Positions 1,244-38,944 of a stretch of DNA of 40,276 nt are shown piece after piece. The position numbers were made by a program, and so were the translations under genes. The stretch is from the IMG/VR virus record IMGVR_UViG_2713896903_000005. One strand, given 5' to 3'. The stretch comes from a virus. Lineage: Duplodnaviria; Heunggongvirae; Uroviricota; Caudoviricetes. Under the pieces are notes generated by a model, which saw only the letters and a program-made list of their open reading frames with translations, had not been told where the DNA came from and ran no database searches. Position 1 is the first letter of the stretch. Each line of letters starts with the position of its first letter.

Positions 1244-1492
1244 TCATGCAGCGTTGCTCACAGGACGATATACACGTTGCTGAACAGGAGGTTTTTTTCC
1301 CTGGAACTCTGCCGGGCTTGCTGCCTGACGTTCATCAAGCCAACGCTCAACTTCGTCACGGTTCCATGCGCAGCGTTTATCGGTGATATACCAGCGTTTA
1401 GGAAATTCCCCTGCGCGCTCCATACGGTCGATAGTGCTCCATGACAGTGGCACCACCGCCAGGAGTTCCTTCTTACCTAATGCACCTTTCAT
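1244..1492 (-). CDS. AlpA/Xis-family small DNA-binding protein (possible excisionase or regulator)
   Basis: 82 aa; pattern (LSWSTIDRMERAGEFPKR...W...EVERWL) resembles AlpA-type winged-helix proteins; good SD (GAGAGGT) before the ATG. Confidence 0.6.
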   Translation of the reverse strand: MKGALGKKELLAVVPLSWSTIDRMERAGEFPKRWYITDKRCAWNRDEVERWLDERQAASPAEFQGKKPPVQQRVYRPVSNAA

Positions 1493-1541
1493 AAATACCT
1501 CTCTTGGTTGCAGTGCGGCGCGCGTGGCGCCGCGGTGGTGG

Positions 1542-2423
1542 TTACATAGATGTTTCGTTTAATTCTTCCCGACGAACGCTGTAAACGTCGGTGGCTTTTG
1601 CCAGCAGTTCGTCATCATCTGAAAGTTTTTGTGCAATGTATTTGTAAGCCTTATCCAGTTCGGAGACAGTGCTGTAATTCATCGCTGCGTTGGTAAAGGC
1701 CATCAGCATTTCTTCTGGATCACGGCTATCCGCTTTACGCGTTTGCTCATCAGGCTTTTTCACTGTTTTAGCGTTGATCAGACTATTAATTCCCGCAGCC
1801 GTAGTTGTTTGCGGAGTAATGTCTCGCTCTACACGCGGTGTCGTTTCCTGTAATTCGTCAGGGGTGTAAACACCGAGAAGTACATCAGGAGCGTGCAGGC
1901 GAGCCCATCGTTTCGTGCAAAGATAGGCAAGCTGCTGGCGCGGATCCTGTTCCCACAATGGAGAGTTACGCACTCCGGCTTGCGCCATACTGATGGTAAG
2001 CTCACGGGGTTCTGCTTCTCCTTTAAGAACTGCTGACACAGTTACCGTCAGATTCGGTGATTTATCTGTTTTGCCGTTAACATTCGACCAGTCACCGCTC
2101 CAGCGATAATTCAGGCGTGTCGCTAGCAGGCTGGAAGAGGATACGACCGCGTTTACCAACTGCGCTTCGTAGCCTAACGTTCCGTTTACCACATGCGTTT
2201 TCTGCGCCACGGCGAAAGGGTTCATTCCCCACTGTGCCGCCTGCATGGTCACCGCCAGACAATCGGCAGGTTTGCCTTCAAGATGTTTCGGTACAGTCGC
2301 TTTGCTTTGTGACATCAACTCAGCGAAACGCACCAGTTGATTCATGCCCTCGGGGCTGAAGATTGCCGCAGCAGTGCCTACAGTTGCGCCTGGTTGTGAT
2401 GTGATTGCGATATCATTGCTCAT
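1542..2423 (-). CDS. RecT/Red-beta family single-strand annealing recombinase (Bet-like)
   Basis: 293 aa; C-terminal region (CTKRWARLHAPDVLLGVYTPDELQE...ERDITP) resembles the lambda Bet C-terminus; ATGA overlap with the upstream exonuclease gene. Confidence 0.8.
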   Translation of the reverse strand: MSNDIAITSQPGATVGTAAAIFSPEGMNQLVRFAELMSQSKATVPKHLEGKPADCLAVTMQAAQWGMNPFAVAQKTHVVNGTLGYEAQLVNAVVSSSSLLATRLNYRWSGDWSNVNGKTDKSPNLTVTVSAVLKGEAEPRELTISMAQAGVRNSPLWEQDPRQQLAYLCTKRWARLHAPDVLLGVYTPDELQETTPRVERDITPQTTTAAGINSLINAKTVKKPDEQTRKADSRDPEEMLMAFTNAAMNYSTVSELDKAYKYIAQKLSDDDELLAKATDVYSVRREELNETSM

Positions 2424-3241
2424 ACGTACATATCCTGTTTACGTGCCCAGTCAGGGCGTTTAATAATTTCCACGCCGCCCCATTCATCATTTATGCGGCA
2501 TTCGTGATAGGTATTCAGATCCCGGCGGAACAGAGCGTGCCCGGCATCGACATCCTGCGCATCCAACTCGAACACGCGTACCGGATACCGACCACAATCA
2601 ATGCTTTCGCTCACGGCAAGAAATAAAAAACCATGCGGTTGACCAGTAACCCTCATTGCGCCTTCGCGGTACATTGCGTCCTGCACGTGGTAGCGGAATT
2701 CCTCGATGTGGCGTGCAAAACGGTCCATATCTGCAACCTTTTTCACGTCGACGATCACGTTGTGCTCGTTCAGCCATTTGTCTGGACGAATGCGGCACAA
2801 CTCACCAGTATCTTCATCGTTCCAGTACATTGATGCTTCGCAGTAACCAGGTGCTTCCAGCATCCAGCGTGCCGCCGGGTGAGCCATTGCGCTATCACGC
2901 ATCAGCTCCAGTTTCCGCCACTGCTCGGCATCAAGTACCGTAATCCCCATATCCGCCACATCACGAAGAAATGCCTCTTCGTCAGCTTTACCTAGTTTCG
3001 TCCGACGATCGAATTTCGGTGAAACAATGAAGCGTTTGTCGAACTCTCCAGGCTCCAGAAGCAGACAGTGCAATGCGGTTCCCATATCCAGTGCAGACTT
3101 TTTCTCTTCGTCTTCTGGTGCTGCCTGAACCCATTTAAGAAGCGCCGGATTCTTGGCAACCATGTCCAGTTGCGATTTACTCACGCCGTCACCGGCGTGG
3201 TAGTCTTCGTTGCTGATGTCGAAATAAATTCCCGGTTTCAT
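2420..3241 (-). CDS. PD-(D/E)XK recombination exonuclease (exonuclease VIII-like)
   Basis: 273 aa; N-terminus MKPGIYFDISNEDYH and D...E.K-type nuclease core are typical of prophage PDDEXK exonucleases partnered with RecT; SD GAGGGA. Confidence 0.75.
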   Translation of the reverse strand: MKPGIYFDISNEDYHAGDGVSKSQLDMVAKNPALLKWVQAAPEDEEKKSALDMGTALHCLLLEPGEFDKRFIVSPKFDRRTKLGKADEEAFLRDVADMGITVLDAEQWRKLELMRDSAMAHPAARWMLEAPGYCEASMYWNDEDTGELCRIRPDKWLNEHNVIVDVKKVADMDRFARHIEEFRYHVQDAMYREGAMRVTGQPHGFLFLAVSESIDCGRYPVRVFELDAQDVDAGHALFRRDLNTYHECRINDEWGGVEIIKRPDWARKQDMYV

Positions 3242-3537
3242 GCCGCGTCCCTCTGTCCATCAAGCTGATCCGCCAGATCCCAGCGGGCGATAATTGCCAT
3301 TGCCTCTCGCCGATAGGCATCCATCAGTTCTTCGAACTCAGGGCTGTCTTTAGCAGCCTCCAGTACTTCCTGACGAACGCCTTTGCCTGTTACAACGTCG
3401 AAAGTTGAGGACAGTTGATGAAGTCGGATGCTCTCAATCAGTTCAACTTGTCGGTCATATAGCTGTTCTGACAGGCGGTAGTCCTTGTCGAATGCCAGCA
3501 TGATTTTTTGAAGATTTTTCTGCTGATTAACGTTCAT
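3238..3537 (-). CDS. putative host-nuclease inhibitor (Gam-like), weak call
   Basis: About 99 aa; C-terminal segment (PEFEELMDAYRREAMAIIA) loosely resembles lambda Gam (EFQERMAEHIRYMVETIA); sits directly upstream of exo/bet; SD GGGAGGG before the ATG at 3537. Confidence 0.4.
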   Translation of the reverse strand: MNVNQQKNLQKIMLAFDKDYRLSEQLYDRQVELIESIRLHQLSSTFDVVTGKGVRQEVLEAAKDSPEFEELMDAYRREAMAIIARWDLADQLDGQRDAA

Positions 3538-3539
3538 TA

Positions 3540-3692
3540 TCAGCCCTCCCATATCTCGTTATCGTTGGCCACATCGCGAGCTTCTTTGCTGACGAAAGCC
3601 CACTTAATGCCTTCCTGTAAGGTGCGGAACTTCCAGCTCGTGAATCCGCATGCAGTAACGCAGTACCAACCGTTGATGATTTTCCACTGCAT
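3540..3692 (-). CDS. small Trp-rich protein (50 aa) in the Kil-like position
   Basis: Not in the ORF track (below its size cut-off); ATG at 3692 with SD GAGGT 8 nt upstream; first gene after the putative PL promoter; stop lies 2 nt before the next start. Confidence 0.35.
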   Translation of the reverse strand: MQWKIINGWYCVTACGFTSWKFRTLQEGIKWAFVSKEARDVANDNEIWEG

Positions 3693-3725
3693 AACTTGTT
3701 ACCTCGGTCTGTTATCGTTGAGGTA

Positions 3726-3754
3726 ATAATTATGCGTATTTGGTTTGGTGTCAA
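3726..3754 (-). promoter_or_regulatory. putative leftward early promoter (PL-like)
   Basis: Minus strand: -35 TTGACA (3754..3749), 17-nt spacer, -10 AATTAT (3731..3726); flanked by TTACC-N5-GGTAA sites at 3774..3788 (perfect) and 3712..3726 (one mismatch, over the predicted start site). Confidence 0.45.
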
Positions 3755-3773
3755 TAGATATGAGTTAAAAAAA

Positions 3774-3788
3774 TTACCCGCAAGGTAA
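3774..3788. promoter_or_regulatory. operator-like palindrome TTACCCGCAAGGTAA (OL-like)
   Basis: Perfect TTACC-N5-GGTAA just upstream of the PL-like -35. Confidence 0.5.
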
Positions 3789-3800
3789 TTGCGTGGGCAA

Positions 3801-3823
3801 TAAAAAAGCCGCCAGAAGGCGGC
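3801..3823 (-). terminator. intrinsic terminator downstream of the repressor gene
   Basis: Minus strand: GCCGCC-TTCT-GGCGGC hairpin followed by TTTTTTA. Confidence 0.6.
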
Positions 3824-3845
3824 TTACTTTCTGAAAACTATAGTT

Positions 3846-4430
3846 TTATTGTTTGCTTTTTTCGTTCTGGTTGATGACAAATTCAATGTAACTTTCGATC
3901 TTTGCTTTCTCGGTTTCGGGTAACAATGCGTAGCGCGAGCGGTCATAGTTGATGGTTGCAGGGTCGTGCGGGTGAATCAGTAATTCATAGCCGTGACGCC
4001 CGAATGCGGATGCCACATTCTCCAGGGTGGAAATGGAAACGCTAACCTCATTGTTTAACAGGCGGCTGATTGTCACCTGGGCGACGCCGGATGCGCGGTG
4101 TAGTTTTCCCTGCGTTGAAAGGTCGCGGCTTTCGCTCATCCAGCGTTCCAGGTTGTGAGCCGCCAGCTGACCTATATCGCTTGGTCCGACAGGCTGAAAA
4201 CCTTCCTGAGAAAGCGAGCGATCGATATCAAGCCAGTTACGGGGTTTATTGGCGGCAGCTTCAATTTTTCGAGCAACCTGGTCGCCGATAACCTTTTTGC
4301 CAAGAGCCCAGCGGTTTACCAGATTTGCCTGAGTTCCAAGTTTTTCTGCCATCCGCGTCTGAACACCATTGAATTCACGGTCGATCAAGTCGTTGAGATT
4401 TTGCCTGCGGACGTCCTGGATACTTTTCAT
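3846..4430 (-). CDS. prophage repressor (CI-like), tandem HTH, no peptidase domain
   Basis: 194 aa with two XRE-type HTH-like segments (residues about 10-60 and 105-150) and no S24/LexA-like Ala-Gly...Ser...Lys signature; divergent from the Cro-like gene. Confidence 0.7.
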   Translation of the reverse strand: MKSIQDVRRQNLNDLIDREFNGVQTRMAEKLGTQANLVNRWALGKKVIGDQVARKIEAAANKPRNWLDIDRSLSQEGFQPVGPSDIGQLAAHNLERWMSESRDLSTQGKLHRASGVAQVTISRLLNNEVSVSISTLENVASAFGRHGYELLIHPHDPATINYDRSRYALLPETEKAKIESYIEFVINQNEKSKQ

Positions 4431-7302: not shown

Positions 7303-7923
7303 ATGGAAAGTAATATCAAAGGGTTAGTTTCCGCCGGGCATGAGATGGCTTCGGAACTAAAAGCAGAATGTGGTGCCGTTGATATGCGCAGTGTGGCAAA
7401 GCTGATCAGCGATTTGGCAACGCAACTGGAAGTGCAACTGGTGCGTGCTAATGCGCTGGCCGAAGACCACCAGAGAGCGATTGAGTCAATTAAGCAGGCT
7501 GATGCAGCTGTTAAGTTGGCACACGAGAAGTTTTCGGCGCTGGCTGCGGAGAATGCGGCGCTGAAGTCTGCACACCCTCAGCAATTCGGTCAGAAAATGA
7601 TGGATGCATTGGTTGCATATGAGGAATGCCAGGACGATGTACCAGAAAGAGGAATGCTTAATGCGTTCTTCATCCTTCGTGACAGTGTTTGCATTGACAC
7701 TCCTGCTACTGGCGCTTTCCTGGCTGAAGTGCGGGCGCAGGGGGTGGATGCTGCTATAGAAGCTGCAAAAAATCTGGTGGCCCAAGAATATGAGTATAAG
7801 GATTTCAAAGCGGCGCAGAGTGATTGCTGTATGCACCTTGGTTCAGACCTGGTAGGGAAGGTTGAAATGACTGAGTGGTTAGTTGACTTTGCTGCCCAGC
7901 TTCGCAAAGGAGGCAACCAGTGA
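7303..7923 (+). CDS. hypothetical protein, possibly Ea22-like
   Basis: 206 aa, helix-rich; position and composition resemble ead/Ea22-like lambdoid accessory proteins; weak. Confidence 0.4.
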   Translation: MESNIKGLVSAGHEMASELKAECGAVDMRSVAKLISDLATQLEVQLVRANALAEDHQRAIESIKQADAAVKLAHEKFSALAAENAALKSAHPQQFGQKMMDALVAYEECQDDVPERGMLNAFFILRDSVCIDTPATGAFLAEVRAQGVDAAIEAAKNLVAQEYEYKDFKAAQSDCCMHLGSDLVGKVEMTEWLVDFAAQLRKGGNQ

Positions 7924-9627: not shown

Positions 9628-9901
9628 CCTGCAGCTTGCCGTCAAAGGTGAATACTTCGACGCCATGATTCGCGGAGATAAAACGGAAGAGTATCGCCTG
9701 TGTAATGACTACTGGAATAAGCGAATCATGTTCCGGGAATATGACCGCCTGATTATCACAAAGGGATATCCGAAGCGCGACGACTTCAGTCGCAGAATTG
9801 ACGTCCCGTATAACGGATATGAAATAAAAACAATCACACATCCCCACTTCGGCGATAAACCGGTAAAGGTGTTCGCGGTAAAGGTAAATATTGATGGCTA
9901 A
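9620..9901 (+). CDS. hypothetical protein (possible ASCH/PUA-like fold)
   Basis: 93 aa; GTG start with SD AGAGGT; 8-nt overlap with the upstream gene. Confidence 0.4.
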   Translation: MANLQLAVKGEYFDAMIRGDKTEEYRLCNDYWNKRIMFREYDRLIITKGYPKRDDFSRRIDVPYNGYEIKTITHPHFGDKPVKVFAVKVNIDG

Positions 9902-10232
9902 ATCAGCAGCAGAGCGCAAAGCCGCTCAGAGAGCCAGACAAGCTGCATCTGGTGTGCGTAAGCTGGAAATTGTGCTTGATGCTCAGGAAATTGAAATGCT
10001 GGAGCGTAACTGTGCCACGCGTCGCCCCGGGCGTGCGCCTTACGAATTTGGTGAGTATATAGCGTTACTGATCCGCCAGGATGATGCACGCGTGCGCGGG
10101 CGTATAAAATCGATCAGCAGAAAACGTTGCGGTAAGTGCGGCGAGAGAGTTCCAGTTAATTCATGCCCGTGTAATGGTGACTCGCAATGCTGGGTGACTA
10201 AAGGCTGGCATGAAACGAAATTAATAGTGTGA
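9894..10232 (+). CDS. hypothetical protein with C-terminal Cys cluster
   Basis: ATG at 9894 (ORF-track TTG at 9891); CGKCG...CPC motif near the C-terminus. Confidence 0.4.
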   Translation: MAKSAAERKAAQRARQAASGVRKLEIVLDAQEIEMLERNCATRRPGRAPYEFGEYIALLIRQDDARVRGRIKSISRKRCGKCGERVPVNSCPCNGDSQCWVTKGWHETKLIV

Positions 10233-10240
10233 CATGTCAC
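10229..10240. repeat. 12-bp perfect palindrome GTGACATGTCAC (copy 1 of 3)
   Basis: Identical 12-mer also at 12680..12691 and 30539..30550; all three sit at gene or module junctions. Confidence 0.6.
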
Positions 10241-12679: not shown

Positions 12680-12691
12680 GTGACATGTCAC
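12680..12691. repeat. 12-bp perfect palindrome GTGACATGTCAC (copy 2 of 3)
   Basis: Between the convergent terL and gp49-like genes, immediately after hairpin AGCCAGC-N6-GCTGGCT (12656..12675). Confidence 0.6.
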
Positions 12692-13274: not shown

Positions 13275-13351
13275 TGGCGTGGCATGCAGGATTCGAACCT
13301 GCGACCAACCGCTTAGAAGGCGGTTGCTCTGTCCAGCTGAGCTAATGCCAC
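13275..13351 (-). tRNA. tRNA-Arg (anticodon UCU)
   Basis: 77-nt cloverleaf read by hand on the minus strand: acceptor GTGGCAT/ATGCCAC, D-stem GCTC/GAGC, anticodon stem ACCGC/GCGGT with loop CTTCTAA, T-stem GCAGG/CCTGC with loop TTCGAAT, discriminator G, encoded CCA. Confidence 0.85.
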
Positions 13352-25617: not shown

Positions 25618-27315
25618 ATGCCAATTTACACAGATGATCCGGGACAGGGAATTAACCAGCCAATTGGCAACGCGCCAGCAGGGCTTGGCGAATCGCTGCT
25701 TTCTTCCCTTAAGCAGGGATTTGAAGAGGGGCCGGTCATGTCCGGCTACCGCTTTGCGCAGGCCGACTCGCTGGCGAATGACCCAAACTCTACAGTTATC
25801 AGTAAGCAGGAAGCGGATGAGCTCCTGAAGCAGTACGGCGTAAAGAGCATAAACGTGCCAGATTCTGGCGTTACGCAGGCTTTTCTCGATCATGTTATTG
25901 CCGAACGCAAAGATTCTCTGGCACGCCAGCAGATCGCGATGTCGGCACCGAGCGGATGGGTAGCCACGCCGCTTAATTTCGCAGCCAGCCTAGCTGGTTC
26001 AATGGCAGATCCTGGTAACGTGGCGCTGGCGCTGGTTCCGTTCGCTGGAGAAGCAAAGGCGGCTTCTGTGCTTGGCCGATTTGGCGAGCGATTTGTTGCT
26101 GGTGCACGCATGGGGGCAGCGCAGGCGGTGGTGACCGTGCCGCTTACCGGGCTGGCAGCGGCGGCGGAAGGTGACGACTTCACCTATAGCAACGCGTTGG
26201 AAAGTACTTTCTTTAACACGATGGCTGGCGGTCTAATGCATGCCGGCGGCGGCCTTATCGCCGATATCGTGCGACCGCGTCGCGTTCCCGATGCTGCAAC
26301 GGGAGAGTCCCCGGCGTTTTCTGGCGATGCGCAGCCAACCCCGGTGATAACGCCTGACAACATTCCGGCGGGCGTGAATATCCCTGAGGTTGGCGCTAAC
26401 GCAGATCTGGCGGCTGCCATTTCCAGTGAAGCGGAGAGCTACGCATACAGCCGGGCTTATGACGACGTGGTTCCTGACTATATGGCGCGCCAGCAGGAGT
26501 TACAGAGCGGGCAGATCGGTAACGTTGCCGACCTGCGTGCCGAGCTTGCGGCTAATCAACGTCATGCTGACTCTCTTGATGCGACGCTGCAGCAGCGCAC
26601 CAAAAAGTATCAGGGGCAGCGGATGAAGTTTAAGGATGCGCGCTCTAGGGCACTGAAAGAGATTCAGGCCGAGAAAGACGCCATCGCTGCACGCAATCAG
26701 GAGATCAACACATCGCTGGAGCAGAACGCGACAGCAGAGCAGGCGCGCTGGCGCCAGTCTCAGATTTCCCGCGGCGAGATCCCCGACGACCTGAAAGTCA
26801 CCATTTCCGAGCGTGCGCAGCAGATCCTGGACGGCATGCAGATGTCGCCGGTCGCTGGCGCAGTTCGCACTGCCGCAAGCGCCATCAGGGATGCTGACTG
26901 GAGCGTGAACCAGCAGGCGTATCGCGCTGCGCTGGCACACATGATGGAAGGACGTAGCCCAGATGTTGAGCCCTTCTATGAACTGCACAAACCGGCACTG
27001 CGTGAACGCGCCATCCATCGCATACAGAACCCGGCACGGCAGGTTGATGAAACGGCTCGCCCAGCAAGCGAAACAGCCGATCGGGTTTATCAAGAAACGC
27101 AAAAGGCAGATCATGAAATTACCGCTGCCGCTGCAGACCTTGATAACGAGCTCAACCTGAGTAACGCCCTGCTTGACGATATCGCTGTCGATAACCCTGA
27201 TCTTGCGACCACGTTGCGCCAGAAACTCAATGATATTCGTGCAGACGCCAGCGACAATAGCATGAGCAACGCTTTCCGGGCATTTGCCGCCTGTATGATT
27301 AACCGGGGGATGTGA
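25618..27315 (+). CDS. internal virion / ejection protein
   Basis: 565 aa, Ala-rich, between the SLT protein and a large ejection protein. Confidence 0.45.
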   Translation: MPIYTDDPGQGINQPIGNAPAGLGESLLSSLKQGFEEGPVMSGYRFAQADSLANDPNSTVISKQEADELLKQYGVKSINVPDSGVTQAFLDHVIAERKDSLARQQIAMSAPSGWVATPLNFAASLAGSMADPGNVALALVPFAGEAKAASVLGRFGERFVAGARMGAAQAVVTVPLTGLAAAAEGDDFTYSNALESTFFNTMAGGLMHAGGGLIADIVRPRRVPDAATGESPAFSGDAQPTPVITPDNIPAGVNIPEVGANADLAAAISSEAESYAYSRAYDDVVPDYMARQQELQSGQIGNVADLRAELAANQRHADSLDATLQQRTKKYQGQRMKFKDARSRALKEIQAEKDAIAARNQEINTSLEQNATAEQARWRQSQISRGEIPDDLKVTISERAQQILDGMQMSPVAGAVRTAASAIRDADWSVNQQAYRAALAHMMEGRSPDVEPFYELHKPALRERAIHRIQNPARQVDETARPASETADRVYQETQKADHEITAAAADLDNELNLSNALLDDIAVDNPDLATTLRQKLNDIRADASDNSMSNAFRAFAACMINRGM

Positions 27316-29864
27316 TGGCAGCAAACGAATTTTTGACGCAGTGCGAGCGCAGTGTAAATGCTGCCGCTGGTCGCGAGCTTTCTTCCGATGAGATGGAGTC
27401 GCTGGTGCGTGACATGAACGACACCACTAGGCGAATTCTGGCGACCAATGAGGCGCTGTCTCTGGAAGAGGCCGCTATGCGCGCAGCGGAAGAACTGGGC
27501 AATGCCGATATGCTGGCAAAACAGATTGAGGCTCGCAATAAGGCAATCAACACCCGTATTGCCGCACAACGACTTAGAGAGCTTCGTACTATCTGGAAAG
27601 ACCGCCCGGATATCGGGCTTGAAGCAATGCTGGTTGGCCGCAACGATGCGCGTACCGGCGCCCGCCGGTCGGTATCTTCGGAGGTGGCGCAACTGCGCGG
27701 CAAGTATCATTCCGGTATCAACTACGATTTTGACCGTGCCGGGCTGGTGCAATTCATCGCCAGCGGCAGCAATGACAGGGAAATTGCCGATGCAATGTGG
27801 CGCATAGGGCGCGGGCAGTCAACTGACGGTATGACAAAGCAATCCGTAAGCGCTGCACAAATCATCATGAAATGGCAGGAAACTGCGCGCATTGATGAGA
27901 ACCGCGCCGGGGCATGGATACGCAAAGAGCCGGGCTATATAGTGCGCCAGTCACACTACATCATGAAGATCCGCGCCGCAGGTTATGAAGCATGGCGAAA
28001 TGCTATTCTCCCGCGCCTTGATGAGCGCACTTTTGACGGCGTGGCTGACCGCGAGCAGTTCATGCGTAACATTTATAACGGGCTGGCTTCCGGCGTGCAT
28101 CTTACATCTGAAAAGCCAGATTGGATGAATGGCTTTAAGGGATTGGCGAACGCAGCTAAACGCGCCAGCCAAGAGCGAATTTTGCACTTCAAAGATGGTA
28201 TCTCGTGGCACGAGTACAACCAGCAATTCGGCACCGGCAGCCTGCGAGAGGCGCTGTTTGGTGGCTTAAACAGCGCTGCCCGCACAACGGGCATGATGCG
28301 CGTACTGGGCACTAACCCACAGAACATGTTTAAGTACCTGACGGACACCATTGCTGAAGATATCAGCAAATCCGGAAGACCGGCAGCGTTGGCTGACTAC
28401 ATGACGAAGGTGCGTCGCATTAACCGTACCGTAATGCCGCAGGTTGACGGCTCGCTAAATATTCCTGGCAGCGTAGGCTGGGCCAATGCGTCGGCGGCTG
28501 TACGCGGCTGGTTGCGTATGAGCCAGCTTGGTGGCGCGGTAATCTCATCGTTTAACGACGTGCCTATCGCCGCTACCGAGATGCGCTACCAAGGGCAGAA
28601 TTTTATGCAGGCGTTGCTTGGTGCTATGAGAGGCCGCTTAACGCGTTACAACAGCGCGGAGCAGAAAGAGATCCTTTCCTCTATCGGAGTTTATTCCGAC
28701 TCCATGACGCAGGAAATCATCCGGCGCATATCTGGTGATGACACGCTGAATGGAAAACTTGGTCGCGCGCAGCAGCTTTTCTTTAAGTACAACCTCATGA
28801 ACTTCTGGACCGAGAGCGGTCGTAACAGCAACGCCATGATGATAACCAACTGGCTTGCAAAGAATGCTGACCAGTCTCATGCGCGGCTACCGGAAGACCT
28901 GCGACGCGTGCTGGATCTGCACGGTATTGGCGAACGTGAGTGGGAAATTTTTCGCAACATGGACATGGCCGATAGCGAAGGTCGTAAGTTCATGACGACC
29001 AGCGGCATCCGCGGCGTGCCTGACGAAGTGATTGCCGGTTATGTAGAGAGTAAGGGGATCAAACCAACGCAGCGCGCTATCGCTGACGCACGCGATCAAT
29101 TGGAAGGGCAGTTGCGCGGCTACATCCTTGACCGCCTGAATATCGCCATGTCAGAGCCTGGCGATCGCACGCAGGCGTTTATGAAGATGGGCACGGTGCC
29201 AGGAACGGTGGCTGGGGAAGCAATACGATTCGCTGGTCAGTACAAATCGTTCACTGCAAGCTTCATGCAGAACGTACTAGGACGCGAAGTATTCGGGCGT
29301 GGTTATATTCCTGCTGGGCTTGGTGAGTCGAAAACCGGATCGCTGACGAATGCGCTGCTACGTAACGGGAAGGGGGCTTTCCTTGGTGCTGCAAATCTCT
29401 TTGTCTGGGCGACTATGTTTGGTTATATCTCCATGCAGTCAAAACTCATGCTGAAAGGGCAAACACCACGCCCGGCAGATGCCAAGACGTTTCTCGCAGC
29501 CGCATCTCAGGGGGGCGGTCTTGGCATCTTGGGTGACTTCATGTTTGGCGAGGTCAACCGCATGGGGGCCGGGCCGGTTACGTCGCTAATGGGGCCAGCA
29601 GCATCGAACGCTGACAGCATTATCACGCTGCTCCAGCAGACCACGAGAGGGGATGCAGATTTGGGTGACTGGTATCGCACGGCACTTGACAATACGCCAT
29701 TCCTCAACGTGTTCTGGCTTCGTACGGCGATGAATGGTTTAATATTGAACCGGATACAAGATGCCCTTGACCCAGGCTCTCTTGAGCGTTATCAGCGCCG
29801 TGTTGAGCGTGAACAGGGTAACGACTTTCTGATCCCACCATCGCAGTTCATGCTAGGGAAGTAA
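27315..29864 (+). CDS. large internal virion / ejection protein
   Basis: About 850 aa; ATG at 27315 overlaps the upstream stop (ORF-track GTG at 27312); hydrophobic segment near the C-terminus consistent with membrane insertion during ejection. Confidence 0.45.
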   Translation: MAANEFLTQCERSVNAAAGRELSSDEMESLVRDMNDTTRRILATNEALSLEEAAMRAAEELGNADMLAKQIEARNKAINTRIAAQRLRELRTIWKDRPDIGLEAMLVGRNDARTGARRSVSSEVAQLRGKYHSGINYDFDRAGLVQFIASGSNDREIADAMWRIGRGQSTDGMTKQSVSAAQIIMKWQETARIDENRAGAWIRKEPGYIVRQSHYIMKIRAAGYEAWRNAILPRLDERTFDGVADREQFMRNIYNGLASGVHLTSEKPDWMNGFKGLANAAKRASQERILHFKDGISWHEYNQQFGTGSLREALFGGLNSAARTTGMMRVLGTNPQNMFKYLTDTIAEDISKSGRPAALADYMTKVRRINRTVMPQVDGSLNIPGSVGWANASAAVRGWLRMSQLGGAVISSFNDVPIAATEMRYQGQNFMQALLGAMRGRLTRYNSAEQKEILSSIGVYSDSMTQEIIRRISGDDTLNGKLGRAQQLFFKYNLMNFWTESGRNSNAMMITNWLAKNADQSHARLPEDLRRVLDLHGIGEREWEIFRNMDMADSEGRKFMTTSGIRGVPDEVIAGYVESKGIKPTQRAIADARDQLEGQLRGYILDRLNIAMSEPGDRTQAFMKMGTVPGTVAGEAIRFAGQYKSFTASFMQNVLGREVFGRGYIPAGLGESKTGSLTNALLRNGKGAFLGAANLFVWATMFGYISMQSKLMLKGQTPRPADAKTFLAAASQGGGLGILGDFMFGEVNRMGAGPVTSLMGPAASNADSIITLLQQTTRGDADLGDWYRTALDNTPFLNVFWLRTAMNGLILNRIQDALDPGSLERYQRRVEREQGNDFLIPPSQFMLGK

Positions 29865-29865
29865 T

Positions 29866-30237
29866 ATGAACAGAATTATATTAATGATTATTCTTATGCT
29901 TTTAGTTGTAGAATCTTTTGCAGATACTACCTCACCGTTAATGATTCAGCCTAAAAATGGGGAAACACTGGAGGATTCTAAAAAGCATACAATGGAATAT
30001 TTTGGATGTATAAAAGGGCAGGTCGTAAAATACGCTAAGACAGGAGAAAGTGTTGATTCTATATCCAAAGCTTCGGTTGTGTCATGCGAGTCGTACATAC
30101 AAAAGATTGCTGAATCAAATATATACTATTTAAATTCCTCTCAAGACGGTAAGCGGAAATTTATTGGAAGGCTTAAATCAGATGGTGAAAATTTAGCAAC
30201 GAAATTTGCTATGGATGAAAAGCTAAAAAATAAATAG
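29866..30237 (+). CDS. AT-rich moron: small secreted protein
   Basis: 123 aa; N-terminal signal-peptide-like segment MNRIILMIILMLLVVESFA; visibly lower GC than the flanking virion genes. Confidence 0.5.
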   Translation: MNRIILMIILMLLVVESFADTTSPLMIQPKNGETLEDSKKHTMEYFGCIKGQVVKYAKTGESVDSISKASVVSCESYIQKIAESNIYYLNSSQDGKRKFIGRLKSDGENLATKFAMDEKLKNK

Positions 30238-30245
30238 GTGACTAC

Positions 30246-30542
30246 ATGCAAGCGATAGGATTCATTGTTTATATCGTCGTTGGTCTTTTTCAGTTGGCAG
30301 CAATTATGGCTGGGCTTGAATCATGGTGGGGATTGCACTGGATAATTGCAGCCCCCATTGCTTTCATCGTGAGCTATATTCCATTTGTTGGAGCGATTGT
30401 TGGTATGGTTGGCGCTGTGGATGTATGGCGGTGGGAGTGGTGGCAGGCTGGCCTTCTCTTCTTTGGTGGGATCATCTTTGCTATTGTCTGCGGTGGAATG
30501 TCATCATTTTTCGAATGGCTATCATTCAGAAAAGGGACGTGA
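30246..30542 (+). CDS. AT-rich moron: small integral membrane protein
   Basis: 98 aa with two to three hydrophobic helices; SD AGGTGA; followed by a palindrome and a strong terminator. Confidence 0.5.
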   Translation: MQAIGFIVYIVVGLFQLAAIMAGLESWWGLHWIIAAPIAFIVSYIPFVGAIVGMVGAVDVWRWEWWQAGLLFFGGIIFAIVCGGMSSFFEWLSFRKGT

Positions 30543-30550
30543 CATGTCAC
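30539..30550. repeat. 12-bp perfect palindrome GTGACATGTCAC (copy 3 of 3)
   Basis: Overlaps the stop codon of the membrane-protein moron and directly precedes a terminator. Confidence 0.6.
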
Positions 30551-30575
30551 AGGCCGCTTTCGCGGCCTTGTTTTT
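30551..30575 (+). terminator. intrinsic terminator ending the virion/moron operon
   Basis: AGGCCGC-TTTC-GCGGCCT hairpin followed by TGTTTTT. Confidence 0.7.
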
Positions 30576-30804
30576 AACGAATGCCACCGCCGCCAGGGCG
30601 GGAATCCGCAGAACGCCCACCGCAGCGGGAGCCGTCAGCGGCAGTATCGCTGTCGTGCTGACAACGACCGGCAAAGGCCTGAGTTGAAGCTACCAGAGAC
30701 AACAAAACGAACAGTGCAGCAAATGCTTTTTTCATTGTGAAATTTCCATCTATAAGCCACCTCAATGTGGCGTCAATGAGTGTAGCACTGACTTTTGTTT
30801 CGTC

Positions 30805-30830
30805 CACAAAAAAGCCCGCGGCGCGGGCTA
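30805..30830 (-). terminator. intrinsic terminator ending the leftward antirepressor operon
   Basis: Minus strand: GCCCGCG-C-CGCGGGC hairpin followed by TTTTTTGTGG. Confidence 0.6.
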
Positions 30831-31343
30831 TTCTTCATCTTGATTATTTTTATTTGGTCTGTCGTTTCTACCAAGAATAAATACAGAAGCCAAACCAATT
30901 AGATCAACAGTTATTAATGTACCAGCAAATACTGTATCACCGTTCCAAGCAAAAAGAGTGGCAATAGCAAGAATAAGAATTGTGACAGTGAAAGCCATCC
31001 ACTGACCGCGCTTATCTTTATATATTGCACCAGACATAGCCATATATTCCATGCTATGACGATGAGCCTGTTCCTTTTCGCTCCTGACCATTATTCTTTC
31101 GGCTCCGTTATCTACGATTTCGTTGTATTCACGGAGCATTGATGGTGGAGGCAGAGGTCCGCTAAAAGAACTCTTCTTTACAATCGCCATGAACTGAGGC
31201 CGTTCAAGTAAGCGTTGGAGAATGGCTGGGTTTTCAACCAACTCTCCTTCGATTTCCTTGACCTTTTCCTCAGTTACCTTTTCCTGCTCATCACCGGGCT
31301 GTGGCAAGCTGACGTCTTGCTTTTCTTGCACGCAGTCGCTCAT
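30828..31343 (-). CDS. DUF2335-like membrane protein
   Basis: 171 aa; soluble N-terminal region with PPPSMLREYNEIVDNGAERIMVRSEKEQAHRH followed by two C-terminal transmembrane helices. Confidence 0.5.
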   Translation of the reverse strand: MSDCVQEKQDVSLPQPGDEQEKVTEEKVKEIEGELVENPAILQRLLERPQFMAIVKKSSFSGPLPPPSMLREYNEIVDNGAERIMVRSEKEQAHRHSMEYMAMSGAIYKDKRGQWMAFTVTILILAIATLFAWNGDTVFAGTLITVDLIGLASVFILGRNDRPNKNNQDEE

Positions 31344-31506
31344 ATGGCCTCATACTTATCCTTAAGTCATCACCTACAGCCTGAAAGTCATTTCTTATTG
31401 ACTCTGCATCTGAATTACTAGATAGCAGCTTTGTATAATCTGTAGATGGAACCAAATCCAAGATACTACCTGCTGCACGCATAATCCTGCGGGTTGAGCG
31501 CAACAT
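31291..31506 (-). CDS. hypothetical small protein (71 aa)
   Basis: Strong SD AGGAGGT 5 nt before the ATG at 31506; 3' end overlaps the start of the DUF2335-like gene by about 50 nt in another frame. Confidence 0.35.
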   Translation of the reverse strand: MLRSTRRIMRAAGSILDLVPSTDYTKLLSSNSDAESIRNDFQAVGDDLRISMRPYERLRARKARRQLATAR

Positions 31507-34200: not shown

Positions 34201-36111
34201 ATGACGGTCTCAACAGAAGTTGACCACAACGAATATACAGGTAACGGTGTTACAACTACGTTCCCTTATACCTTTAGGATTTTCCAGAAATCTGATCTGG
34301 TAGTACAAGTGGTTGACCTTGATGAAAATATCACAGTTCTTGCTCTTGATACTGATTACACAGTTACCGGGGCGGGAGGGTATAACGGTGGTAATGTAAT
34401 TCTGTCGAAGGCGTTGGCTAACGGTTATCAGATTTCTATGTATCGAGAGCTACCGGTTACGCAGGAAACCGATCTGCGCAATCAGGGTAAGTTCTTTGCA
34501 GAGGTGCATGAGGATGCGTTTGATAAGCTAACGATGCTGATCCAGCAGGTTCGCAGTTTGTTTACCTTGGCGCTTCGCAAGCCATCATTCGTGGCAAACT
34601 ATTATGATGCTTTGAATAATTACATCCGTAATCTTCGTGACCCGTCTCATCCTCAGGATGCAGCCACCAAGAATTATGTAGATACGCTGGCCAACGGAAA
34701 CCTAAACAGGGTGCTAAGAGTTCCAGAAGCATCCATACCTTCTCTTCCTGACGTTAATGGAAGGAGAAATAAAGCATTAAGTTTTGATGCATCTGGTAAC
34801 CCCTTGCTTTTAGATCCTGCAGGCAGTGGATTATGGGGATATGTTCTTATCGATTCGTTCCAGGCTGGAGCAAAAATATCAACCCGTTACGAAGCATTGC
34901 ATTGGCCTCTTCCTGATGGGGATGGTGAATATTATCGTTGGGATGGAGTATTGCCTAAGGAAGTCCCTGCAGGATCAACCCCTGACTCAACTGGTGGAAT
35001 AGGAATTGGGGCGTGGGTTGGTATAGGTGATGCATCATTAAGATCTGACTTGGCAGATAATCTAATCCCAGGAGCAAGCTTGGTATCAATACATTCTGGG
35101 ACGGTTAACGATGCTCTTGTGTATAACACTCCAGAAATGTTTGGCGCGCGACCAGACGGTTCTGTAGATGCATCTTCAGCTATTATTGCAGCAGGAAAGG
35201 ATGGCATTGGTAGTTATGGTGTAAATAAAGTTCTCCTCACAGGAGGTTCAGAAAGAACATTTGATATACAGTCTGATACAAATTCTCTTATCCTGTCATT
35301 CGGAAGACCATTTATTAATGGTATGGGAAATGGTGAGATAATCGATGTAAGAAGAACGATAAATCGCCCTATTAATAATAAAGGCCATTCTTCTTATCTT
35401 ATAGCTCACCGTGGGTATGTGAATGTACATGCTGAAAATACGGTCGCATCAATTAGTCTTGCGGCAAAATCTTGCCATGCTGTAGAGGTTGATGTTCAGA
35501 CCACATCTGACGGTCGATATGTTGTTTTTCATGACTTTACCACTGGTAATTTAATGAATAATGATCTAACTGTAGCAACATCAACCCTAGAACAACTTCA
35601 GGCATTAAAATATAAGAAAATGATTGGTACAAAATATGAGTACCATTGCAGGATTCCTACATTTGAGCAAGTTCTTGACGCTTGCCGTAGAACAGGCACT
35701 GAAATTTGGTGGGAGATTATGTCAACCAATACACCAGATCAAGTTGATGGTATGATACAGGCCGTCATTGATTATGGAATGGAACACAATGCTGTTTGCA
35801 CCACCGGAGTAGTATCTAACTTATATCTTCTCCGCAATAAATCTGAAGATATGAGAGTTCAATTAACTTCATCCAGCGCGACCCCCGATGAAACAGTGAA
35901 AGATATGGTTCGTCATCTTCGCCATATTGGTAATGGAACTCTTGCAATTGAGTATATTGACATGACAAACAGGCCATGGATACCTGAATATTGTTACCAA
36001 CGAGGCGTGGATATTGTTGTTTACACATTGTTTGCGTCTTATCAGGCGGTTCAAGCAAGAAACATCGGGATTCGGCAGATCATGTGTAACCAACAAGTAG
36101 GAGTTGAATAA
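34201..36111 (+). CDS. tailspike with C-terminal glycerophosphodiester phosphodiesterase (GDPD)-like domain
   Basis: N-terminus (NEYTGNGVTTTFPYTFRIF) matches the conserved particle-binding domain of podovirus tail fibres and tailspikes; C-terminal region carries GDPD-type motifs (IAHRG...ENT...VEVDV...DGRYVVFHD, later RIPTFEQVL...EIWWEI); SD GGAG. Confidence 0.7.
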   Translation: MTVSTEVDHNEYTGNGVTTTFPYTFRIFQKSDLVVQVVDLDENITVLALDTDYTVTGAGGYNGGNVILSKALANGYQISMYRELPVTQETDLRNQGKFFAEVHEDAFDKLTMLIQQVRSLFTLALRKPSFVANYYDALNNYIRNLRDPSHPQDAATKNYVDTLANGNLNRVLRVPEASIPSLPDVNGRRNKALSFDASGNPLLLDPAGSGLWGYVLIDSFQAGAKISTRYEALHWPLPDGDGEYYRWDGVLPKEVPAGSTPDSTGGIGIGAWVGIGDASLRSDLADNLIPGASLVSIHSGTVNDALVYNTPEMFGARPDGSVDASSAIIAAGKDGIGSYGVNKVLLTGGSERTFDIQSDTNSLILSFGRPFINGMGNGEIIDVRRTINRPINNKGHSSYLIAHRGYVNVHAENTVASISLAAKSCHAVEVDVQTTSDGRYVVFHDFTTGNLMNNDLTVATSTLEQLQALKYKKMIGTKYEYHCRIPTFEQVLDACRRTGTEIWWEIMSTNTPDQVDGMIQAVIDYGMEHNAVCTTGVVSNLYLLRNKSEDMRVQLTSSSATPDETVKDMVRHLRHIGNGTLAIEYIDMTNRPWIPEYCYQRGVDIVVYTLFASYQAVQARNIGIRQIMCNQQVGVE

Positions 36112-36923
36112 TGAATATTTCAAGAATGGGGTGGAAACATTACGTAACCTCTGGAACTGGTACAATAAATATCAGTGAAGATAGAGAAACTTTATACATG
36201 TCTGCAAGCGCTGGGCTAACAACTTTAGCAACAACGGAAATTGTTGCTGATGCTGAGAGTGAAATTGAGGTGACATTCGAGGCTAGATATATAGCCAATT
36301 CAATCACAGGTACTGATTATGCGATTTGTGGTATTTATTATTTTGGATTTCAGAACGAGAACGGTGGTGGTTTAGGTAACAGCTTCTCGGAGTTGCGCAT
36401 AACATCTAACGAGCTACAAACATATACGGCGAAATTGATTGTGCCAGCTACTAAAAACGAACTTAATTCTAATAGAATTGAGATCAGGTTTAATATTCCT
36501 AACAATGCTGACGGTTCTCTTTATGTTATTGGATATCCACGGGTGTCTATTAAGCGTTCTGCAATTGGGGTTTCGAGAATTATCGCAAAAGGTATCATAG
36601 ATCTCGTTCAGAATTCCGGCTCTGATGAAGTAGTTGTTAAGTTAATTAGTTGTAACAATGTTTCCAATGTTACGATGACATCAAGTAATCAAAATGTAGA
36701 AATAAATCTTGAAAGTTTTCCGAGAATTTACCCGGAAACGCCAATGTTTACCGCTACGATGATTCCGCAGGGAGATGAAGTTCCTGGAATGTATCAGCCC
36801 TTATATTTAACGTTTGATGCAAAAAGCAAAAAACTAACAATGGCATTTAAAAATGCATCTGGATCACGAATTGCAATATATCAAGCAAGACATCTGCGGT
36901 TTAACTTCACAATAACAATCTGA
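36111..36923 (+). CDS. hypothetical protein translationally coupled to the tailspike
   Basis: 270 aa; TAATG stop/start overlap with the tailspike gene and SD AGGAG; AT-rich, beta-rich. Confidence 0.45.
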   Translation: MNISRMGWKHYVTSGTGTINISEDRETLYMSASAGLTTLATTEIVADAESEIEVTFEARYIANSITGTDYAICGIYYFGFQNENGGGLGNSFSELRITSNELQTYTAKLIVPATKNELNSNRIEIRFNIPNNADGSLYVIGYPRVSIKRSAIGVSRIIAKGIIDLVQNSGSDEVVVKLISCNNVSNVTMTSSNQNVEINLESFPRIYPETPMFTATMIPQGDEVPGMYQPLYLTFDAKSKKLTMAFKNASGSRIAIYQARHLRFNFTITI

Positions 36924-37130: not shown

Positions 37131-37535
37131 ATGGTCACTATGGCTCATGTGCTAACAACAGAGTCGGTTAATCAGGGGCTTAGTATGACTGCTCTGGCTT
37201 CGGTTTTTGTTGGTATACCACCAGAAGTGGCGCTTGGTGCTTTATCAGGTGCGGTAATATTTATTACCTCTGCTGTTGAATATCCAATACGCCGCCGGGT
37301 TATCCTGTCGATGCTCAGCTTCCTCTGCGGGCTTCTCTTCTACAAACCAACAGCATCAATCCTTATCGGCGTAGCCAGCCTGATCCCAACTATCACGCAG
37401 GATTCATTCGAGAAAGGGATCGTTTTCTCTGTCGGCGCATTTGTTTCGGCAATTGTTGCAGTACGCATTGGTATCTGGCTCTATCATCGTTCCGACAATC
37501 CACGCGATTTAATCCCGGGGGAGAAAAGACGATGA
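37131..37535 (+). CDS. holin-like membrane protein
   Basis: 134 aa with several hydrophobic helices, first gene of the lysis cassette; start could be 37140; a 12-codon ORF (37117..37155) with strong SD overlaps the start. Confidence 0.45.
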   Translation: MVTMAHVLTTESVNQGLSMTALASVFVGIPPEVALGALSGAVIFITSAVEYPIRRRVILSMLSFLCGLLFYKPTASILIGVASLIPTITQDSFEKGIVFSVGAFVSAIVAVRIGIWLYHRSDNPRDLIPGEKRR

Positions 37536-37840
37536 CAACTCATGAGCTGCTTTTACTCATTGTCAATGCGGTTATCTGTTCTGTGATAGCAATCCGCGTC
37601 GGAACCTTCCAGCGTAATGGATCGCAACACCGTCGGTGGGGAGGTTGGATAGCCTACTTCCTTATCGTAGCGTCAGCCAGCATCCCAGTCCGGGCTGCAT
37701 ATGCAATCTGGTTACACACGACAATGGCTGTGGATTTATCTGAGGTAATTATTAACGCTGTCATGCTTGCTGCGGTTCTTAAAACTCGCGGTAACGTCGT
37801 TCAAATTTTCAAAATAACGAGGTCTAAACATGGAGATTAA
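37532..37840 (+). CDS. holin or antiholin
   Basis: 102 aa with about three transmembrane helices; immediately upstream of, and overlapping, the endolysin gene. Confidence 0.5.
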
Positions 37841-38459
37841 ACAATTCCAGCGAGCTGCTGGTATTAGCGAGGCGCTGGCCGAACGCTGGTTCCCGCATAT
37901 AACTTCAGCGATGAAAGAGTTTGGAATCAGCAAACCCGAAGATCAGGCAATGTTTATTGCTCAGGTCGGGCATGAGTCTGGGAGCTTCACTCGGTTGCAG
38001 GAGAATTTCAACTACAGTGTCTGTGGACTGGCTAACTTCGTTCGGGCTGGGCGCCTCACTCAGGGGCAGGCTAATGCACTGGGTCGCCGTGCTGGTGAAC
38101 CGCCATTACCACTCGAGCGACAGCGCGCGATCGCAAATCTGGTGTACAGCAAACGCATGGGTAACAATGCTCCTGGCGATGGCTGGAATTACCGTGGGCG
38201 CGGACTTATCCAGATTACCGGTTTGAATAATTATCGTGACTGTGGAAACGGTCTGAAGGTTGACCTGCTGGAGAGTCCTGAACTGCTGGCGCAGGACGAA
38301 TATGCGGCTCGTAGCGCGGCGTGGTTCTTCTCCAGCAAAGGCTGCATGAAGTATACCGGCGATATTGCACATGTAACTCTGATTATCAATGGTGGCAGGA
38401 ATGGCATCGACGATCGGCTCGCGCGGTACGTCACTGCCAGTAAGGTGATGGCTGTATGA
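37830..38459 (+). CDS. endolysin, glycoside hydrolase family 19 (chitinase-like lysozyme)
   Basis: GH19-type motifs [12 protein letters not shown] and [15 protein letters not shown]; located between the holin and spanin genes. Confidence 0.8.
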
Positions 38460-38944
38460 TCTGGGCATTCGTAAAAGCATACCGGAAACAGTTGCTTATC
38501 GTGGCGATGCTTGCTGTTCTGGTCATGTTTGGAGTTGTTACATGGAATTTACATGGCAGTCGTCAGTACGACGCCGGGTATGCGCAGGCGAAGGAAGATC
38601 AGAAACAGGCTGATGATAAGTTCAGGTCACAGCGTGAGCAGGAGAAAACACAAATTGAACGTGAAGCACAATCCCGTATTGATGCGGCGCGTGCTGATGC
38701 TGAGTATGCTAATACCGCTGCTGACAGCATGCGCGCCGAGATTGACAAAACCAAGCGACTCGCCGAACACTATACCGGATCTTTCCCCCCTGGCACGCCA
38801 GCCAGCAAGGTCATCGGTGTGCTCGCCGACATGCTTGAAGAAAGCAACCGAGTTTACAATGCAACAGCAGTTGAGGCTGAAAAGTATCGTATCGCAGGGG
38901 AATTCTGCGAGCAGCAATACGACTCATTGAAGAAGCAAAAATAG
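38456..38944 (+). CDS. i-spanin (Rz-like)
   Basis: 162 aa; N-terminal transmembrane helix, charged coiled-coil periplasmic domain; overlaps the endolysin stop. Confidence 0.65.
38682..38930 (+). CDS. o-spanin (Rz1-like) embedded in the Rz frame
   Basis: +1-frame ORF inside Rz starting [17 protein letters not shown], with lipobox LLTAC, followed by a Pro-rich mature region. Confidence 0.55.
   Translation: MRRVLMLSMLIPLLTACAPRLTKPSDSPNTIPDLSPLARQPARSSVCSPTCLKKATEFTMQQQLRLKSIVSQGNSASSNTTH

Follow-up and report, generated by a model that had tools for sequence, protein, structure and literature searches.

What are the two small genes that close the late operon of an Escherichia coli prophage, and what might they do for the phage or for the cell that carries it? 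The question is raised by the window analysed here, a stretch of 40,276 nucleotides (nt) deposited as IMG/VR virus record IMGVR_UViG_2713896903_000005, which is an epsilon15/phiV10-type prophage of E. coli (genus Uetakevirus). A preliminary description of this DNA had seen in the two genes an AT-rich moron, made up of a secreted protein and a membrane protein, in a position like that of the superinfection-exclusion gene sieA of phage P22. We find that the pair is no unit: the first open reading frame (ORF1) is a rare AT-rich cassette, the second (ORF2) is a common gene of ordinary composition, and the two are independent, swappable cargo, which may serve in the exclusion of related phages.

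Both genes are on the plus strand and lie exactly where they had been placed, ORF1 at 29866..30237 (123 amino acids, aa) and ORF2 at 30246..30542 (98 aa). ORF1 starts 1 nt past the TAA stop codon of an 850-aa gene, and ORF2, preceded by the Shine-Dalgarno sequence AGGTGA, starts 8 nt past the stop of ORF1. A strongly reduced guanine-plus-cytosine (GC) content had been ascribed to both, and this holds for ORF1 only: with 33.1% GC and 29.0% GC at third codon positions (GC3) it is the lowest in the window, which has 49.3% GC overall, and its upstream neighbour has 54.9%, whereas ORF2, at 46.8%, is ordinary. ORF1 looks horizontally acquired.

The gene order of the window is that of phiV10 and epsilon15: terminase, portal, capsid, and tail genes are followed by three large internal virion proteins of 873, 565, and 850 aa. 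The first of these carries an SLT domain and is encoded two genes upstream of the last, whose gene (27312..29864, plus strand) defines the upstream edge of the slot that ORF1 and ORF2 occupy. The 850-aa product matches phrog_684 ("virion structural protein", E value 3e-269) and is the counterpart of phiV10 gp20 and epsilon15 gp17; we infer an ejection role for it from likeness to T7 and P22. Downstream of ORF2 come a minus-strand gene block that includes a BRO-N antirepressor, then the tailspike gene (34201..36111) and the lysis cassette. Positions 30231 to 30846 share 98–99% identity with phages HEMP4 and phiv142-3, phiV10 matches in the terminator region, and DNA related to positions 29300 to 31400 was found in 538 of 5,426 complete E. 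coli genomes.

In that same set of genomes, the two genes are distributed independently: ORF1 is present in 7 and ORF2 in 216, and they occur together in five. Each also stands alone in the same slot of other prophages, and the idea of a two-gene moron as a unit is not supported. Klebsiella prophages have ORF1 without ORF2, with a 12-bp palindrome (described below) directly after the ORF1 stop codon, and Cronobacter prophages have ORF2 without ORF1, with the ORF2 start codon 1 nt past the large virion gene. In some E. coli prophages, that of N21 (positions 3938 to 4300) among them, a rearrangement that introduced pieces of antirepressor genes ends ORF2 20 nt past its start, and in GPEC128-620 the gene is frameshifted; ORF2 is therefore dispensable.

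The IMG/VR loci, 80 with ORF2 and 18 with ORF1, show what else the slot can hold. The gene before ORF2 is an unannotated 57-aa ORF with two transmembrane (TM) helices in 65 of the 80 loci, ORF1 in seven, and an ORF1-like gene (48% identical) in two; the remaining six have a 103-aa two-TM protein, a 54-aa two-TM protein, or a 175-aa secreted protein. In phiv142-3 the 57-aa ORF (positions 3830 to 4003; GTG start, 36% GC) separates the last virion-protein gene from the ORF2 homologue; the deposited record has an Orf12 whose N terminus is extended too far and takes up part of this space. E. coli 4/4 and ETEC4068 have a 186-aa secreted protein in the slot without ORF2, and phiV10 gp21 (46 aa) and epsilon15 gp18 (64 aa) are unrelated two-TM proteins there. 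These last two were considered as ORF2 homologues and set aside: they share its position and are small TM proteins, but they are not homologous. All occupants of the first position are envelope-targeted, have 31–41% GC, and belong to unrelated families, and ORF2 homologues have 42–48% GC. The spacing of 1–12 nt is the same in every arrangement among the relatives.

This distribution bears directly on the idea of an obligate two-component system, in which secreted ORF1 and membrane-bound ORF2 would function only jointly. The ORF1-ORF2 pair does recur, with a spacing of 8–11 nt, in diverged lineages (86% and 94% identity) and in 8 of the 18 IMG/VR loci with ORF1, and the 48% identical ORF1-like gene likewise precedes ORF2 in its two loci. 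Set against this are the clean ORF1-only and ORF2-only arrangements of Klebsiella and Cronobacter, the differing GC contents of the two genes, and the absence of ORF1 from about 211 of the 216 E. coli genomes and 71 of the 80 IMG/VR loci that have ORF2, and we regard obligate partnership as very improbable.

The gene upstream of the slot is itself variable. Prophages that are otherwise similar differ in their last internal virion protein, which has at least three very different alleles, of 850-aa, 824-aa, and 1129-aa types, each accompanied by its own downstream cassette types; the 850-type of the window and the 824-type of phiv142-3 (locus 1346 to 3820) are only 23% identical. ORF1 at 75% identity or more follows the 850-type allele in 15 of 15 loci, and the 57-aa ORF always follows the 824-type. 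More broadly, ORF1 homologues were found directly after all three alleles, with ORF1-like genes after the 1129-aa allele.

ORF1 and ORF2 appear to share the transcriptional setting of the late genes. Their common orientation, the gaps of 1 and 8 nt, and a consensus scan that gave no sigma-70-like site on the plus strand between 29000 and 30246 point to co-transcription with the late genes, as far as can be read from the DNA. The operon ends at 30551..30575 (plus strand) in an intrinsic terminator with a 7-bp stem (AGGCCGC-TTTC-GCGGCCT, six G-C pairs) followed by TGTTTTT; its U-tract overlaps the stop codon of a convergent minus-strand gene (30574..30738), and phiV10 has the same element, likewise annotated as a terminator. 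A palindrome and a strong terminator had been reported at this end. The 12-bp palindrome and a canonical stem with U-tract are indeed there, but the folding energy is ordinary in comparison with shuffled sequences (z −1.4). Compared with the lambdoid morons of HK97 and lambda (e.g., lom and bor), ORF1 and ORF2 are likewise extra genes among conserved late genes, patchy among close relatives, with envelope products; ORF1 also shares their deviant base composition, and ORF2 does not. A classical moron (Hendrix/Juhala definition), however, is an autonomous transcription unit, with a promoter and a terminator of its own, and is active in the repressed prophage, whereas no promoter-like site was detected for ORF1 and ORF2, and their terminator is that of the operon, shared with relatives that carry other cassettes. 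The whole is best described as variable prophage cargo of an ordinary kind that closes the late operon.

The palindrome, GTGACATGTCAC (30539..30550), closes the slot and overlaps the TGA stop codon of ORF2. It occurs in three exact copies in the window, where about 0.002 would be expected for an exact 12-mer in 40 kb. The second (10229..10240) overlaps the TGA stop codon of a 113-aa ORF (9891..10232) upstream of the small-terminase gene, and the third (12680..12691) adjoins a hairpin after the large-terminase gene, between convergent genes; two of the copies therefore overlap a TGA stop codon and two adjoin terminator hairpins. Copies are found at homologous places in phiV10 (positions 2262 and 19493) and at the end of epsilon15 gp18 (position 7518). 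In 76 of the 80 IMG/VR loci the palindrome closes the slot whatever the cassette, and the hairpin that follows varies. It is thus a conserved, genus-wide cis element at operon and module boundaries and not peculiar to the ORF1/ORF2 cargo; it may serve as a binding site for a protein, as a boundary at which modules recombine, or as both. The ends of the phiV10 record fall inside a copy with one mismatch, which may reflect nothing but the numbering.

Co-transcription with the late genes is the only mode of expression that the sequence supports, and it is what would be expected of a helper in the lytic cycle. Envelope proteins made late could tune the timing of lysis in the manner of an antiholin, or shield the inner membrane of the producing cell from the phage's own membrane-inserting ejection proteins by self-immunity or chaperoning. 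Epsilon15 (gp18), phiV10 (gp21), and most relatives encode a small hydrophobic protein just after the last virion gene, and ORF2 has a weak, sub-threshold similarity to Phage_holin_5_2 (PF16079). The match has an E value of 0.027 and 15.2 bits, below the Pfam gathering cut-off of 29.2, and the prophage has its own holins elsewhere (37131..37840). These are part of a complete separate lysis cassette (37131..38944) with Phage_holin_8, Phage_holin_3_7, a GH19 endolysin, and DUF2514, which argues against a core lysis role. The occupants of the slot are, moreover, unrelated to one another; the Klebsiella prophages and E. coli 4/4 have a secreted protein only, which leaves no conserved essential membrane function there, and relatives of ORF2 are found far from virion genes. 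A lytic-cycle role is therefore, in our judgement, unlikely.

The product of ORF1 has a typical Sec signal, as had been proposed. Its signal peptide, residues 1–19 (29866..29922, plus strand; MNRIILMIILMLLVVESFA↓D), has distinct n-, h-, and c-regions with small residues at −3 and −1: the N-terminal MNR is followed by a 12-residue hydrophobic core and an ESFA↓D cleavage site, which is kept among homologues as ASA↓D or SFA↓D. The signal part is variable and the mature part, a helical domain with two invariant cysteines, is conserved; the alignment of homologues has a mean column identity of 87%, with C48 and C74 invariant. AlphaFold2 models an all-helical bundle with a predicted local distance difference test score (pLDDT) of 87. 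One distant relative has the domain joined to a lipoprotein signal (lipobox LSAC) instead, which supports a periplasmic location. ORF1 is thus probably a helical periplasmic protein exported by the Sec system and containing a disulfide. The family is small, with 22 clusters among 5.8 billion, all from Enterobacterales, and a metagenome scan added close relatives only. Scans of Pfam, PHROGs, NCBIfam, and PADLOC gave no match, nor did a tblastn search of 50,697 phage records or a profile sequence search of the PDB.

The product of ORF2 is predicted to be a small multi-helix membrane protein, again as described. AlphaFold2 models it with four helices (residues 2–28, 32–42, 46–59, and 65–97; pLDDT 91). 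It aligns over its full length, residues 1–98 on positions 1–98, with the profile of phrog_3075 (PHROGs v4, unknown function; E value 1.6e-54), the only family found; Pfam, NCBIfam, and PADLOC gave no match, and the scans drew a blank for two alternative cassettes as well. Conserved residues are P46, G49, G53, G56, A57, W61, and W63, and helix 3 carries a conserved P-x2-G-x3-G-x2-GA motif typical of a glycine-zipper helix. The family has Lys/Arg-rich termini and two acidic, Trp-rich loops (ESWWG and DVWRWEWWQ), a charge pattern that suggests an inner-membrane topology with both termini inside and the Trp-rich loops in the periplasm. Searching the same 50,697 phage records with tblastn returned Uetakevirus-like records only, with no T-even matches; a homologue with 54% identity is encoded behind the last large virion protein in a different podophage of Salmonella, whose terminase is T7-like.

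Are these real genes at all? Both are short and are annotated everywhere as hypothetical, and the damaged copies of ORF2 in N21 and GPEC128-620 could be taken for remnants in decay. Yet the ratio of nonsynonymous to synonymous change (dN/dS) against homologues in other genera is 0.11–0.15 for ORF1 (0.06 for its mature part) and 0.05–0.16 for ORF2, values that indicate purifying selection, with synonymous change saturated; the alignments across genera are free of indels, both proteins have confident AlphaFold2 models, and ORF2 matches a PHROG profile from end to end. The probability that they are chance ORFs or functionless remnants is close to nil, and this explanation is refuted as far as sequence evidence can refute it.

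The ORF2 family is far wider than phages and extends to chromosomal and mobile-element contexts. An exhaustive profile search returned 743 representatives at the 50% identity level, and 50 diverse members had no meaningful match to Pfam. Some members are fused to DUF805, RDD, or MORN domains, partners that were examined as a functional clue and gave no lead. One distant relative lies 11 nt behind a gene for a CI-like HTH_3 repressor, divergent from cro, which is the position of rexAB-type genes in lambda; others adjoin integrases and BRO-N genes, a McrB-like gene in a filamentous-phage-like element, or a Schlafen-like gene in a P4-like element. Further relatives lie beside umuD-umuC, twice independently, or adjoin or are fused with DUF805 membrane proteins. 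A second small membrane protein, with a "PYGYY..LRIV" motif, is encoded after the ORF2 relatives of Microvirga and another alphaproteobacterium. The contexts of the family fit accessory membrane proteins that protect the host and not a morphogenetic role.

The relatives in the cI operon and near integrases imply expression in the lysogenic state there, and they bring lysogenic conversion into view: low-level expression from the prophage might alter the envelope to the benefit of the host, e.g., in its permeability, its resistance to serum, or its tolerance of stress. Conversion genes are typically AT-rich cargo that was acquired horizontally, and phiv142-3 orf10, a small gene of the neighbouring region, affected serum resistance (PMC7724020). 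Against such a role, ORF1 and ORF2 have no promoter-like site upstream, the ORF2 homologue of phiv142-3 (orf12) is not among the serum-regulated genes, and neither protein resembles known conversion or virulence proteins. We consider a host-fitness function to have only a minor share of the probability, on a par with that of a lytic-cycle role.

The comparison with sieA remains. Part of it stands, as ORF1 and ORF2 lie between the last ejection-type gene, the 850-aa gene, and the tailspike gene, the interval that contains SieA-family genes. The surroundings also recall P22, where the order is gene 16-sieA-mnt-arc-ant-gene 9, and a BRO-N antirepressor is encoded in the corresponding region of the window. 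The orientation does not carry over: P22 sieA, which lies between genes 16 and 9, converges on gene 16 and is expressed in the prophage from its own promoter, PsieA, whereas ORF1 and ORF2 are on the strand of the late operon with no promoter-like site in the consensus scan. Two minus-strand genes beyond the terminator match the orientation of sieA better than ORF1 and ORF2 do. One, at 30574..30738, encodes a convergent 54-aa secreted peptide with two cysteines (phrog_14503, "membrane associated protein", moron category; E value 2.4e-40) and adjoins the terminator in many related loci; the other, at 30828..31343, encodes a DUF2335 membrane protein (phrog_3996). A search of PADLOC-DB 2.0 at E values up to 1 matched none of ORF1, ORF2, the 54-aa peptide, the DUF2335 protein, and two alternative cassettes. 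At the protein level, ORF2, predicted to be a small multi-helix inner-membrane protein, resembles SieA in this, in its patchy presence among relatives, and in its place in the ejection-gene-to-tailspike interval of a temperate podovirus; they differ in that SieA has 162–164 aa and three TM helices, and ORF2 98 aa and four modelled helices. SieA homologues have been reported only in P22-like prophages, and work on P22 SieA has shown that the conduit formed by ejection proteins can be blocked by a protein of the inner membrane (Leavitt et al. 2024, PMC10883804).

A virion role is excluded for ORF1 and ORF2, because the one is predicted to be exported and the other to be inserted into the membrane. 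The reading that we prefer, tentatively and with somewhat less than even confidence, is by analogy with known systems that the two proteins act at the level of the envelope to exclude incoming related phages. Exclusion genes often adjoin the virion gene that they counter, as with T5 llp beside pb5 and cor beside tail genes. Exclusion is the best single hypothesis because SieA blocks the conduit and because exclusion genes tend to have this kind of neighbour. In outline, the late operon of this Uetakevirus-type prophage, which encodes virion and ejection proteins, ends in a variable cargo tail, with a cassette slot directly after the last internal-virion-protein gene for unrelated AT-rich genes of small secreted or two-TM proteins (here ORF1), a second, optional position for ORF2, and the palindrome and operon terminator closing the slot. 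ORF1 and ORF2 are independent accessory genes, presumably transcribed with the late genes, and their products, in the envelope of the phage-carrying or phage-producing cell, would block the entry of related podoviruses. ORF2 might interfere within the membrane with the inner-membrane conduit of incoming ejection proteins, in the way of P22 SieA, T4 Imm, and the colicin immunity proteins, and ORF1 might act in the periplasm like T4 Sp, e.g., against an ejected transglycosylase or a periplasm-spanning conduit.

Two known systems illustrate how such proteins could work. Imm and Sp of T4 are the products of two independent small genes and act at the inner membrane and on its periplasmic side, where they block DNA entry and the tail lysozyme of the superinfecting phage; PMC12373910 cites Lu and Henning 1994 on this system. 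Both genes are early genes, made in lytic growth, and the likeness to ORF2 and ORF1 is one of logic, an analogy and not membership. The immunity proteins against pore-forming colicins and microcins (e.g., Cei, Cai, and MceB) are inner-membrane proteins of about 100 aa with three or four TM helices, are carried by mobile elements, and neutralise an incoming membrane-inserting protein within the bilayer. ORF2 is likened to them by description; unlike them, it matches no Pfam or NCBIfam immunity model and has no adjacent toxin gene.

Several observations weigh against exclusion. Expression in a lysogen is unindicated by the sequence, given the outcome of the promoter scan. ORF2 was tried as a SieA homologue and rejected, with an E value of 20 in BLASTP against P22 SieA (type A only) and a probability of 0.2% in hhalign. 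The models of both proteins bear no resemblance to solved or predicted viral structures and gave no fold match, and literature searches by accession, family, and phage name turned up no paper on either family and no functional data. In the only transcript screen of a relative, that of phiv142-3 in serum versus lysogeny broth (PMC7724020), which gives serum/broth ratios for up-regulated genes only, orf12 is not among the regulated genes. The constant association of ORF1 with the 850-type allele, in all 15 loci, may be plain physical linkage. Finally, the relatives of ORF2 beside umuDC and DUF805 genes in non-phage settings argue for a more general membrane function.

A bolder extension of the exclusion reading, which we think doubtful but worth stating, would make the tail of the Uetakevirus late operon a site reserved for the exchange of exclusion proteins, each fitted to the ejection-protein allele upstream. 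The ORF2 family has at least 743 clusters at 50% identity, lacks a Pfam model, and has one member in a cI operon; on this view it would be a common but overlooked group of immunity or exclusion proteins that act within the membrane and are carried by prophages and other mobile elements, and the palindrome would be a fixed boundary or protein-binding site for cassette swapping or for the control of read-through.

Other features of the window lie away from the slot. Between the large-terminase and portal genes there is an insert with a minus-strand gene of the N4 gp49/Sf6 gp66 family (PF13876; 12696..13076) and a minus-strand tRNA-Arg(TCT) gene (13275..13351), after which come about 400 nt without a long ORF. 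The plus-strand tailspike gene encodes a Tail_spike_N domain and a glycerophosphodiester phosphodiesterase (GDPD) domain, the latter an unusual receptor-destroying activity for the epsilon15/phiV10 group of phages. It is followed by an AT-rich gene for 270 aa (36111..36923, plus strand; 37% GC, GC3 29.5%).

If ORF1 and ORF2 have no role in exclusion, the value of the analysis is one of annotation, in that one AT-rich cassette, ORF1, is split from one common gene of ordinary composition, ORF2. The natural variants, with ORF1 only, ORF2 only, both, or unrelated cassettes, and with two ejection-protein alleles that share so little sequence, form an easy test bed. Phages of the epsilon15/phiV10 type are used for the detection and typing of E. 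coli O157. If exclusion is true, ORF1 and ORF2 would be the first entry-blocking proteins described for podoviruses of this type, and ORF2 would attach a function to a large unnamed family of membrane proteins of mobile elements.

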